Origin: an uncultured Lentisphaerota bacterium
GTDB taxonomy: Bacteria; Verrucomicrobiota; Kiritimatiellia; CAIQIC01
Length of the DNA: 64,000 nucleotides
NCBI GenBank assembly: GCA_903889245.1
Contig: CAISWQ010000079.1
Location: 876 to 64,875 of the forward strand
Reading direction: 5' to 3'
In this document: positions 18,064 through 22,742 of the stretch, piece after piece
How the letters are laid out: each line of letters begins with the position of its first letter
Position numbering within the stretch: the stretch's first letter is position 1
Position numbers and translations under genes: made by a program
Notes under the pieces: generated by a model
The model's input: only the letters and a program-made list of their open reading frames with translations
The model's database searches: none
Told to the model about the DNA's origin: nothing

Positions 18064-18612
18064 ATGCCCAGTGGCACAGACCAAAAACAGGCGGGCGGCA
18101 ACGGCGCGGTGGACGTGGCGGCGGTCATGGCGGAGTTCGAATCGCCGCTGCTGCGCTACACGGCGCGGTTGCTCAATAACGCCGCGCTGGCGCAGGACGT
18201 GGTGCAGGAGACGTTCATCAGCCTGCTCCGCGCGACACGCGCCGGTATGCGGCCCGATGGCTCCCTCTCGGCGTGGCTCCACCGCGTGGCGCACAACCTC
18301 GCCGTGGACCAGATCCGCAGCGAGGAGCGGCGGCGCGCCCTGCACGCCAGCCAGGCGCGCGAGGCCGCGCCCGCCGCGCCGCCGAGCCAGCGCCGCGAGC
18401 TGGAGCAGGCCGAACTGCTCCGCCTCACGCTGCGCTGCGTACAGCAGCTCGACCCGGCCGAACGCCAGGTGGCCATCCTGCGGTTGCAGGAAGGCCGCTC
18501 CTACAAGGAGATCAGCGCGATCACCGGGCGGAGCGAGGGCAACGTCGGCTGCCTGCTGCACCACGCGGTGCGGCACGTGTCCGAGGACCTGAAGCGCATC
18601 GGTGCGATCTGA
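18064..18612 (+). CDS. RNA polymerase sigma-70 factor, ECF subfamily
   Basis: Region 2 (LLRYTARLLNNAALAQDVVQETFISL) and region 4 (ERQVAILRLQEGRSYKEISAITGRSEGNVGCLLHHAVRHV). Confidence 0.9.
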   Translation: MPSGTDQKQAGGNGAVDVAAVMAEFESPLLRYTARLLNNAALAQDVVQETFISLLRATRAGMRPDGSLSAWLHRVAHNLAVDQIRSEERRRALHASQAREAAPAAPPSQRRELEQAELLRLTLRCVQQLDPAERQVAILRLQEGRSYKEISAITGRSEGNVGCLLHHAVRHVSEDLKRIGAI

Positions 18613-18623
18613 TAGGTGACGAC

Positions 18624-21600: not shown

Positions 21601-22742
21601 ACGCCGCCGCCGCGCGCACGCCCTTCTGTCCGCCGGGCGTGCACCTGCTCAAACTCGGCATCAAGGGCCGGCAGGCCGGCCGCGAGGACCGCGGCGCGAA
21701 CCTGACCTTCCTGCTCGATACCTCCGGCTCAATGAACGCGCCCGACCGCCTCGGCCTCGCGCGCGACGCGCTCAAGCTGCTCGTCGCCAAGCTCGGCCCG
21801 CGCGACCGCGTGGCGCTCGTCACCTTCAGCAGCCGCGCGCGGCTCGCGCTCGACTTCACGCCCGCCTCCGAGCAGAAGAAGATTTTCGCCGCGCTCGATG
21901 GCATCCAGGCCGCAGGCTTCACGCACCTCGAGGGCGGCCTCAAGCTCGCCTACGAAACCGCCGCGCGCGGCTTCGTGGCCGGCGCCGCCAACCGCGTCAT
22001 CCTGATGAGCGATGGCGTCGCCAACGTCGGCGCGGACGCCGCCGCCGAGCTGCTCGCGCAGGTGGAACGCTACCGCAAGCAGGGTCTGTTCTGCTCGGTC
22101 TTCGGCCTCGGCACCGGCACCTACGACGACACCATGCTGCAGGCGCTCGCCAGCAAGGGTAACGGCACCTACCTCTTCATGGATTCGCCCGACGAAGCGC
22201 GCCGCGTCTTCGTGGATGAGTTTGCCGCCACGGTCAACAAGATCGCCGCCGACGTGAAGATCCAGGTCGAGTTCAATCCGCGGCGCGTGAAGCAATACCG
22301 CCAGCTCGGCTACGAGCAGCGCCAGCTCAAGACCGAGGACTTCCGCAACGACGCCGTCGCCGCCGGCGAAGTCGGCTCCGGCCAGAGCGTCACCGCGCTC
22401 TACCAGGTCGAGCTGCAGGGCGACGCGCGCGAGCCGCTCGGCACCGTGCGCGTCCGCGGGCGCAACCTGGAGACCGGCCGCGTCGAGGAACTCGAACGCG
22501 CGATCACCGCGGGCGATCTCGCGCCCTCGTTCGAGCGCGCCGACGTGCGCTTCCAGCTCGCCGCCGCCGCGGCGCAGTTCGCCGAGATTTTGCGCGGCAG
22601 CCCCTATGCCGAAGGCGCGAGCTGTGGCGATGTCGCGAAGGCGCTGCGGCCTGTCGCGCTGGAACTGAACCTCGATCAGAAAGTGCAGGAGCTGCTGCGC
22701 CTCGTGAACGCCGCCGGCGGCGCGCCGCAAGCGAGCGAGTGA
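18624..22742 (+). CDS. Giant anti-sigma factor: N-terminal zf-HC2, one TM helix, long periplasmic region with one autotransporter-associated beta-strand (PATR) repeat and a C-terminal YfbK-like VWA + DUF3520 module
   Basis: ATG 18624, 11 nt after the sigma stop: MNCQDVQEKWLAH...HLETCAACR (zinc finger). TM ILQAAAVLLVSIVMIGLLL. PATR LNKSGAGTLTLEGANSYSGGTTLNGGILVVAG. VWA MIDAS LLDTSGSMNAPDRL...LVTFSS...LMSDGVANVG, followed by VEFNPRRVKQYRQLGYEQRQLKTEDF. Confidence 0.8.
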   Translation: MNCQDVQEKWLAHRVGELGDAEATGLRQHLETCAACRAAAEETERILDLMRSAFAAGPAAPARLDKRHRNRVLRAQFTWAGYRNIILQAAAVLLVSIVMIGLLLPATMDAYSIKHCSGGVVELKLAEANTPPPATPAPDAAQEFTERLADPGAAVKSKDAEHWDTARAPARPEENARRLNLNRTADVAKKMDASGRNAGAFFFDQAKAVAEKPADAKKESVSFKRGARAYQTLYANAPVDAPVSTAGDQRDLYRGERGSGEKAAEASADVSFATHATGVAGPGQAGGGGGGGAKLGFAYSDAGGVGGLNKSGAGTLTLEGANSYSGGTTLNGGILVVAGQASQKQNMAIKDGDGVVTLTGGALNWQGAAVSQTTPAKMPTSGPAAAEPPLNVGGVVAGVPVQLYAETARGNLAPLAPLGASSATPPGKSSGDLSGWAEGESRPRAEPARLARLETDTLVPLRTELPKPMLAGTPSPLPGSVLIIRNAEQQNERLREISKAQPGDSSGLQPRTETAWSALAVETETAKKLEDHRKSVVDATPTLGVVTAPAPVRPATTDEERRDKELKPATTLAAGETVTFGGVLAGSGGIAGAPAASAAGRTAGAEQHQWFLGKGVAKADGKDRWGFEQDEKGQRETAVPATRPPAQQLARSNRAVMNDDFAAQPADGGVAMQNQTYSRQSKSEAVGYLADGTRVGADGLKDAKAAAPAKPTGGAVAQQAAQALGDVSENTVLSLDIAGVASAPVAMKGLEGKAKGHGGYFGRFDHRADADFDANGRLGEARDGQKTGKLAQRPAGPAVAPATEADKWVSTAAPEGRADAKTALGLEFTDAIKSPVLIKGVATAYARRFGRADQRGEADGDRTVLMSDESDAKAADLRQVAQAKQTELGRVLHEDRELDGRKEEKAAQHKKLAEESITSKPIFRAAGVNPFVQVNDQSFSTFSISVDSASFTLARRYLNGGQRPPPESVRTEEFVNYFDYGYAPPGRDLFSVHAAAARTPFCPPGVHLLKLGIKGRQAGREDRGANLTFLLDTSGSMNAPDRLGLARDALKLLVAKLGPRDRVALVTFSSRARLALDFTPASEQKKIFAALDGIQAAGFTHLEGGLKLAYETAARGFVAGAANRVILMSDGVANVGADAAAELLAQVERYRKQGLFCSVFGLGTGTYDDTMLQALASKGNGTYLFMDSPDEARRVFVDEFAATVNKIAADVKIQVEFNPRRVKQYRQLGYEQRQLKTEDFRNDAVAAGEVGSGQSVTALYQVELQGDAREPLGTVRVRGRNLETGRVEELERAITAGDLAPSFERADVRFQLAAAAAQFAEILRGSPYAEGASCGDVAKALRPVALELNLDQKVQELLRLVNAAGGAPQASE

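Follow-up and report, generated by a model that had tools for sequence, protein, structure and literature searches.

In a 64,000-nucleotide stretch of DNA from an uncultured Lentisphaerota bacterium (contig CAISWQ010000079.1 of assembly GCA_903889245.1; hereafter the window), two adjacent genes encode a sigma factor of the extracytoplasmic function (ECF) class and a long membrane protein, which begins with a zinc-type anti-sigma domain and ends in a von Willebrand factor A (VWA) module of the kind known from the Escherichia coli protein YfbK. An earlier note on this DNA had described the two genes as an ECF sigma/anti-sigma pair with an unusual signal-input architecture, bracketed by repeats and possibly acquired or rearranged. 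In this study I find that the pair itself holds up, that its architecture belongs to a catalogued type, and that in related bacteria of the Planctomycetes-Verrucomicrobia-Chlamydiae (PVC) superphylum it is followed by a third gene, which encodes a very large membrane protein. The features are collected in Table 1.

Table 1. Features of the sigma/anti-sigma locus and its surroundings; coordinates are positions in the window.
Feature	Coordinates	Strand	Basis
Intergenic DNA with dispersed repeats upstream of the locus, among them REP-like TTTCCAAGCCTTGGAAA palindromes at 17037-17147	16885-18000		Repeat search
ECF-type promoter TGAAGA-N16-CGTAT, 34 nt upstream of the sigma start codon (putative)	18004-18030	+	Conservation
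ECF (group 4) sigma-70 family sigma factor, 182 aa	18064-18612	+	Pfam and NCBIfam
zf-HC2 / VWA-YfbK_C anti-sigma gene, 1372 aa	18624-22742	+	Pfam
Cytoplasmic zinc-type anti-sigma domain, residues 1-84, C3/H29/C33/C36	18624-18875	+	zf-HC2, orthologue profile
Single transmembrane helix, residues ~85-107, N-in/C-out	18876-18944	+	Kyte-Doolittle
Low-complexity, fast-evolving extracytoplasmic linker, about 810-815 aa, residues 108-922	18945-21389	+	Composition, orthologue identity
One PATR (autotransporter-associated beta-strand) repeat, residues 308-337	19545-19634	+	Pfam, NCBIfam
YfbK-type module vWF_A-VWA-YfbK_C	21390-22715	+	Pfam, all three above cut-offs
2.8-kb insertion with repeats and three small same-strand genes	22743-25546	+	Synteny, Pfam
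Cystatin-like lipoprotein	23310-23699	+	Pfam Cystatin 6.7e-9, cystatin/SQAPI domain, QVVAG-type motif
DUF6794 protein	23764-24588	+	Pfam
PDDEXK_3 'GxxExxY' protein	24829-25227	+	Pfam
Conserved third gene, 2183-aa membrane protein	25547-32098	+	Synteny, AlphaFold2 (AF2), hydropathy

The product of the first gene has the composition of an ECF (group 4) sigma factor: within 182 residues it contains the sigma2 and sigma4 regions only (Pfam Sigma70_r2, residues 27-90, 1.7e-14; Sigma70_r4_2, residues 122-171, 1.8e-10), and it passes the superfamily model TIGR02937 sigma70-ECF with 82.8 bits at a cut-off of 42.9. None of the narrower equivalog or subfamily models of NCBIfam reached its cut-off on this open reading frame (ORF). 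The nearest solved relatives are SigE and SigL of Mycobacterium tuberculosis (about 1e-12), with SigW of Bacillus subtilis farther away (6.9e-5). As the earlier note had read from the sequence, 11 nt (taggtgacgac) separate the TGA stop codon of the sigma gene (18610-18612) from the ATG of the second gene at 18624.

At its N-terminus the second protein matches zf-HC2 of Pfam (residues 3-37), with a score that for a single sequence of 1372 residues lies at 24.6 bits against a cut-off of 22.2. The ligands of the zinc-binding anti-sigma (ZAS) motif are H29-x3-C33-x2-C36 together with the upstream C3, and their arrangement, C-x25-H-x3-C-x2-C, reproduces the complete set of zinc ligands at the spacing of ZAS anti-sigma factors. 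Across 30 aligned orthologous N-termini H29, C33 and C36 never vary, and at least 90% of the sequences also have C3. A profile made from these 30 sequences finds RsiW of B. subtilis as its best solved match in the PDB (5wuq, 2.6e-9), besides ChrR (2z2s, 2q1z, 7e-7), DdvA (8rlz/8rot, about 1e-6) and RslA (3hug, 2.9e-6). The protein thus combines two features of the class I or ZAS type, the ligand motif with its upstream cysteine and homology to anti-sigma domains that were solved bound to sigma factors. On these sequence grounds I regard its assignment as an anti-sigma factor as secure, and the N-terminal domain is predicted to bind the sigma factor.

One could still suppose that the second protein is a membrane-anchored YfbK-like protein that resembles zf-HC2 by chance, given that the single-sequence score exceeds the Pfam cut-off by 2.4 bits and that two relatives from Planctomycetota (L023 and L036) have no Pfam zf-HC2 match. 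However, the ligand residues do not vary, four solved anti-sigma factors are matched by the orthologue profile at E-values of 1e-6 to 1e-9, and a sigma gene lies directly upstream in all related loci examined that have upstream DNA, the two genes being separated by a short gap or overlapping in every locus. A coincidence of this kind is hardly credible, and the sigma/anti-sigma pair of the earlier note is borne out on each of these counts.

The position of the start codon could have undermined the assignment, had it lain downstream of the transmembrane helix. Close orthologues begin with MNCQ or MSCQ, and over the first 80 residues they share 66-71% identity with the window protein, which places the start upstream of the helix. 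In a Kyte-Doolittle plot the whole protein shows a single peak at or above 1.6, and a stretch rich in arginine and lysine stands just before it. The remaining parts named in the earlier note, i.e., the PATR repeat, the VWA domain with its metal ion-dependent adhesion site (MIDAS) and the DUF3520 segment, are likewise all found.

Outside the membrane two very different regions follow each other. In the long linker alanine, glycine, proline, serine and threonine make up 0.40-0.56 of the residues, and over about residues 110-920 it is only 3-45% identical to the nine closest full-length relatives, with many insertions and deletions. The terminal module is 85-97% identical among the same nine relatives and is better conserved than any other part of the protein, so that the anti-sigma domain and the VWA module are strongly constrained, whereas the linker between them is not. 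The module consists, in the order that defines a YfbK-like protein, of vWF_A (PF12450, residues 923-1002, 83.6 bits, 1e-23), VWA (residues 1026-1188, 66.2 bits, 5.6e-18) and YfbK_C (PF12034, formerly DUF3520, residues 1203-1364, 126.1 bits, 2.3e-36). Its MIDAS is complete (D1032-x-S1034-x-S1036, T1100 and D1130), and all five residues are invariant in 94 homologues. By sequence the VWA domain also matches the eukaryotic VWA proteins ITIH4 (1e-6) and ANTXR2 (1e-5).

The length of the linker sets this lineage apart. More distant relatives have 700-816 residues in total and much shorter linkers, so that in this lineage the tether has grown by about 600 residues and gained the PATR repeat. The latter scores 44.4 bits (1.7e-11) in Pfam and 3.7e-12 with TIGR02601; it is present in eight of the nine closest full-length relatives (P0002-P0010, P0009 being without it) and in none of the 120 listed relatives of the 700-816-residue type. 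Other lineages carry LysM, CarboxypepD_reg or secretin-like domains beside the VWA module, as in the related locus L065, where CarboxypepD_reg is placed between the N-terminus and the module. The PATR repeat might bring an autotransporter to mind, but it is single, no beta-domain is matched in Pfam or NCBIfam, and the N-terminal transmembrane helix anchors the protein in the inner membrane. PATR-containing sequence exists elsewhere in the genome: a 3797-residue ORF at 50311-61704 (+) has 13 PATR repeats (Pfam 5.7e-88) and no other domain, and is a giant beta-helical surface protein of a kind common in PVC bacteria.

The conservation of the two ends of the protein bears on where the signal would be sensed. 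The zinc/thiol motif itself could act as a cytoplasmic sensor of oxidative or thiol stress, as in RsrA, with the ectodomain in a structural or adhesive role; the full C-x25-H-x3-C-x2-C set is conserved, and TIGR03988 antisig_RsrA gives a weak match (25.8 bits at a cut-off of 62.5). RsrA itself, however, is matched only weakly by the orthologue profile in the PDB (E 0.22), and the membrane-bound, non-redox factors RsiW, ChrR and RslA score far better. Moreover, the best conserved part of the protein is the ectodomain module with its invariant MIDAS, which points to a functional sensor there. I therefore consider redox sensing by the ZAS motif improbable.

The combination of a sigma factor with an anti-sigma factor that carries VWA and DUF3520 has been described as group ECF289 (Casas-Pastor et al. 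2021, Nucleic Acids Res 49:986; PMC7826278). The locus shows the hallmark of this group, namely, in the +1 position and 11 nt downstream of the sigma gene, an anti-sigma gene with VWA and YfbK_C (DUF3520), and thus the same domain logic. The main text of that study does not mention a conserved giant gene in the +2 position, a PATR repeat or a very long linker, and the searched literature holds no experimentally characterised ECF289 member. A paper on RpoE6 of Azospirillum is not relevant, as the VWA proteins described there are only members of the regulon.

The type is also far from rare. With the C-terminal module as query, 7611 proteins were found at E <= 1e-20; among the best 120, 35 have a precomputed zf-HC2 match, and 39 of the 59 that are apparently full-length contain H-x3-C-x2-C within their first 90 residues. 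Several of the other 20 look like gene calls with a wrong N-terminal start. Where a source is named, the relatives come from Kiritimatiellia, Lentisphaerae and Verrucomicrobia, including one cultured isolate of the Pontiellaceae; in Kiritimatiellota, Lentisphaerota and Verrucomicrobiota proteins of this architecture are plentiful and mostly have 700-816 residues, and orthologues of the two-gene cassette occur in metagenome-assembled genomes (MAGs) of Kiritimatiellia, Lentisphaerae, Verrucomicrobia and Planctomycetota. YfbK-like homologues from Chloroflexota have about 500-800 residues and, in those examined, no adjacent sigma gene. Proteins identical to those of the window are already present, unannotated, in public MAG assemblies, with cluster mates labelled Kiritimatiellota. 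The signal-input architecture can accordingly not be called unusual, as the earlier note had it; the locus is a further, elongated member of a catalogued type of ECF sigma and anti-sigma factor and adds no new architecture.

Upstream of the sigma gene, where the earlier note had proposed to look for a promoter, there is indeed a conserved one. When the upstream DNA of the window is aligned with that of three related loci (L001, L002 and L003), TTTGAAG and CGTAT(A/T)AT are kept, while the spacer and the flanks diverge. In eight of nine orthologous PVC loci (L001-L007 and L009) TGAAGA-N16 followed by CGTC or CGTA precedes the estimated sigma start by 47-65 nt, although the DNA around it does not align, and the sigma factors of these loci are only about 45-93% identical to that of the window; in more distant loci related T(G/T)CAAA...CGT(C/A)T boxes are seen, as judged by eye. 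The motif TGAAG-N16-18-CGTAT occurs once in the 64-kb window, where 0.09 occurrences are expected by chance. Relaxing the second box to CGT[AC] adds one further match, which lies within a coding region (26839-26864, -), and the motif search found no other intergenic copy in the window, including the DNA upstream of the third gene. A simple scan for sigma-70 consensus promoters found no site; in the conserved motif, which belongs to the ECF type, TTGAAG and TATAAT are spaced 19 nt from each other. For comparison, the promoter consensus of B. subtilis SigW is TGAAAC-N16-CGTA, which the motif of the window resembles. The position of a conserved ECF-type promoter before the sigma gene implies positive autoregulation, which the site probably mediates.

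The less ordinary aspect of the locus is the link of the pair to a family of envelope proteins of about 2,200 residues that has no annotation. The third gene of the window encodes such a protein; it matches nothing in Pfam and no sequence in the PDB, and NCBIfam offers only a repeat below threshold (E 0.077). It consists of a signal peptide, an array of beta-sandwiches of about 800 residues, 4-5 transmembrane helices and a second, homologous array, followed by a long helical hairpin and a C-terminal transmembrane helix; the signal peptide and the transmembrane segments were taken from hydropathy. The two arrays reflect an internal tandem duplication of about 750 residues (residues 101-834 against 1202-1921, 24% identity, E 4e-42). 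Confident AF2 models of the two halves reach predicted local distance difference test (pLDDT) values of 86.4 and 85.3, and in both models the halves are strings of beta-sandwich domains, for which the best Foldseek matches are the legs of integrin alpha subunits; these matches are generic, with TM-scores of 0.11-0.18.

An exhaustive HMMER search with the N-terminal half of the giant protein found 3256 cluster representatives at E <= 1e-3, 538 of them at E <= 1e-30. Nearly all matches show two matched stretches, and nearly all representatives of the family are 2100-2600 residues long; homologues of 2100-2240 residues are annotated as "hypothetical". The family is thus large, unannotated and widespread in Kiritimatiellota, Lentisphaerota, Verrucomicrobiota and some Planctomycetota. 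Some distant members have LysM inserts, and the same holds for some of the VWA homologues, which suggests that both proteins are periplasmic and lie beside the peptidoglycan.

I compared the gene order by BLAST of the ORFs of related loci against those of the window, complemented by gene tables. The order sigma gene, VWA anti-sigma gene and giant gene, the last starting about 0-500 nt after the second, is found in L005-L009, L023, L036, L081-L084 and L086. Gene tables confirm this order, with a third product of about 2100-2200 residues, for Pontiellaceae bacterium B1224, a 983-kb ENA contig, a Planctomycetota MAG, a 2.16-Mb contig and a Lentisphaeria contig. In the window and in L002 and L003 the order is unchanged, but the giant gene stands apart from the pair, and in L065 the sigma factor and the VWA/YfbK_C protein are present without a giant gene. 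Judged by synteny, the pair is the front of a three-gene module that is conserved across the PVC superphylum. Two variants of the module may be mentioned. In Pontiellaceae bacterium B1224 (L081, 8000-12355) the sensor is duplicated inside the module, a single sigma gene and the giant gene enclosing two tandem zf-HC2-VWA-YfbK_C paralogues of 656 and 784 residues. In a Planctomycetota MAG (L083, 19300-21510) the giant gene is followed, after about 450 nt, by a gene for a 736-residue protein with sigma-70 regions r2 and r4, an ECF sigma factor that carries a long extension.

From what was computed directly, namely the identity of the domains, the topology, the conserved MIDAS and zinc ligands, the conserved promoter and the synteny, I put at roughly three in four the probability that the locus encodes an autoregulated ECF sigma factor with its cognate single-pass ZAS anti-sigma factor, that the latter has a YfbK-like VWA sensor as in ECF289, and that the two form the front of the PVC three-gene module. 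The sigma binding, the ligand, the mode of release and the regulon that I infer for this system would be as follows. At rest, the cytoplasmic residues 1-84 would sequester the sigma factor at the inner membrane. The VWA domain would be held on a long, flexible periplasmic tether, and its MIDAS would bind an acidic residue of a protein ligand, for which the co-encoded giant envelope protein is the most likely candidate. A changed contact between VWA domain and ligand would inactivate the anti-sigma factor, probably through regulated proteolysis of the kind that acts on RsiW and RseA. The freed sigma factor would then transcribe from TGAAGA-N16-CGTAT upstream of its own gene, and in most relatives the same transcription might also drive the giant gene, as one operon.

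Several observations speak against parts of this reading. The likeness to ECF289 comes from the domains encoded by the +1 gene, while the group is defined by the phylogeny of the sigma factors. In L065 the sigma gene and the VWA/YfbK_C gene come without a giant gene, so that the link to the latter is not universal outside the PVC clade. In the window the giant gene is 2.8 kb away and has no promoter motif upstream, so that co-regulation would need read-through; no T-tract terminator was found after the anti-sigma gene, which makes read-through transcription into the giant gene possible. Finally, the synteny is equally compatible with a giant gene that is an output of the system only.

In this last alternative the switch would be the same, but the VWA domain would sense another input, such as a divalent metal, an envelope or extracellular polymer or another protein, and the giant protein would merely be produced in response. 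ECF operons commonly encode their own output genes. VWA/YfbK modules exist without a giant gene, both in the Chloroflexota proteins and in L065, and the linker gains binding domains that differ by lineage (PATR, LysM, CarboxypepD_reg, secretin-like). On the other hand, within the PVC clade the three genes stay contiguous while sigma identity falls to about 30-45%, and contiguity that tight is more typical of partners that interact physically. I regard a giant protein that is output only as a possible, if tentative, explanation.

At the other extreme, the VWA anti-sigma factor and the giant protein could together act as an integrin-like envelope receptor that is made of two proteins and confined to PVC bacteria, in which the MIDAS would clasp the giant protein and a mechanical or ligand-induced disengagement would activate the sigma factor. 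If so, the system would monitor the state of a large envelope structure that has yet to be characterised. This proposal is rather unlikely as it stands. Integrin I domains, anthrax toxin receptor 2 and the inter-alpha-trypsin inhibitor heavy chains share with the window protein a VWA fold with a complete MIDAS, yet these eukaryotic receptors offer an analogy for ligand binding only, as the fold matches are generic and indicate no homology of the systems.

Among bacterial systems a close parallel for the switch is SigW-RsiW of B. subtilis, in which the anti-sigma factor is also a single-pass membrane protein of the ZAS type. RsiW differs in its small ectodomain without VWA, and the sigma factor of the window is not especially close to SigW. 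For the ectodomain the parallel is E. coli YfbK, a lipoprotein with the same vWF_A-VWA-YfbK_C module; it is not known to have an anti-sigma domain or an adjacent sigma gene, and the Chloroflexota homologues that were examined have neither. The DdvS-DdvA system of Myxococcus xanthus resembles the pair in that DdvA also fuses a ZAS-type N-terminus to a large C-terminal effector or sensor domain, but in DdvA this domain is a CHAT protease instead of VWA, and the defence models of PADLOC have no match at this locus.

Pairs of ECF sigma and anti-sigma factors are one of the main ways in which bacteria signal across the membrane. The locus offers three testable handles on an uncharacterised group: a conserved autoregulatory promoter, an invariant MIDAS that can be mutated, and a strictly co-inherited giant protein as candidate partner or output. 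As the module occurs in a cultured isolate of the Pontiellaceae, such experiments are feasible, and they could also throw light on the function of the YfbK module itself.

In the window the pair is split from the third gene by an insertion of 2.8 kb. It encodes a cystatin-like lipoprotein, of which a homologue is found at the equivalent position in L003; cystatin-like protease inhibitors appear to be uncommon in bacteria. Over 24001-26000 the GC content drops to 0.555-0.582, the minimum of the window except for 50001-51000, and within this low-GC stretch lie the DUF6794 and PDDEXK_3 genes and direct repeats spaced about 150 nt apart (25204-25261/25355-25412 and 25261-25308/25413-25460). The stretch 23764-25460 looks like inserted DNA.

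The repeats that bracket the locus, as the earlier note had observed, are present on both sides as inverted copies. The upstream block also contains elements that recur downstream of the anti-sigma gene: 17947-17990 and 22789-22832 form an inverted pair of 44 nt (89% complementary), and an element of about 170 nt (17532-17700) has inverted copies at 22858-22956 and 23692-23860. Near-perfect hairpins with stems of 27 bp (17225-17299 and 23021-23095), which belong to a repeated element of 81 nt, are probably structures of the repetitive extragenic palindromic (REP) or miniature inverted-repeat transposable element (MITE) type. In an Rfam scan of the flanks the REP-like hairpins gave only spurious sub-threshold matches to microRNA models, and no tRNA was found.

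Such an arrangement might suggest that the two genes had been acquired or mobilised together, with the inverted composite repeats as the ends of the unit, the more so as two repeat families are confined, within the window, to the surroundings of this locus; they are absent from the loci of the relatives. However, orthologues with the same gene order and promoter are found in many PVC genomes that lack the repeats, and wherever a related locus extends far enough the order of the pair is the same. The cassette has the GC content of the window (0.67-0.72, with 64-72% around the locus), and the odd composition lies in the insertion downstream instead of in the pair. The 23-nt core of one element also occurs, with neighbouring repeat sequence, on eight unrelated metagenome contigs from lakes and other sources, none of which encodes the cassette or the inserted genes. 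The TTTCCAAGCCTTGGAAA palindromes form arrays with a spacing of about 31 nt in 13 or more of the intergenic regions in the window (e.g., 5489, 7532-7579, 11021-11068, 13286-13333, 17037-17147, 24670-24780, 32101-32147, 40893-41004, 44554-44601 and 50053-50163), with 57 matches, both strands counted, where chance would give 0.07; the related MAG loci that were compared have none. Hence the repeats are dispersed elements of a REP/MITE-like kind that collect in intergenic DNA and not the boundaries of an acquired unit. Nor does the locus look like a composite transposon or other mobile element, as the ORFs scanned from 14.3 to 35.2 kb include no transposase-like gene and the gene order is the same in relatives without the repeats. 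Acquisition of the pair is thus very improbable, and of the earlier proposal of acquisition or rearrangement only the latter stands, in the form of the insertion that parts the pair from the third gene.

The neighbouring genes are ordinary. Upstream, a PhoR/PhoB-like histidine kinase and response regulator are encoded at 14365-16861 (-), and downstream, at 32164-35187 (+), a phosphodiester glycosidase (NAGPA), MreB and MreC. Farther upstream, a 1407-residue ORF (1093-5316, +) combines Laminin_G_3 with a segment that resembles the middle domain of the hydrazine synthase alpha subunit (HZS_alpha).

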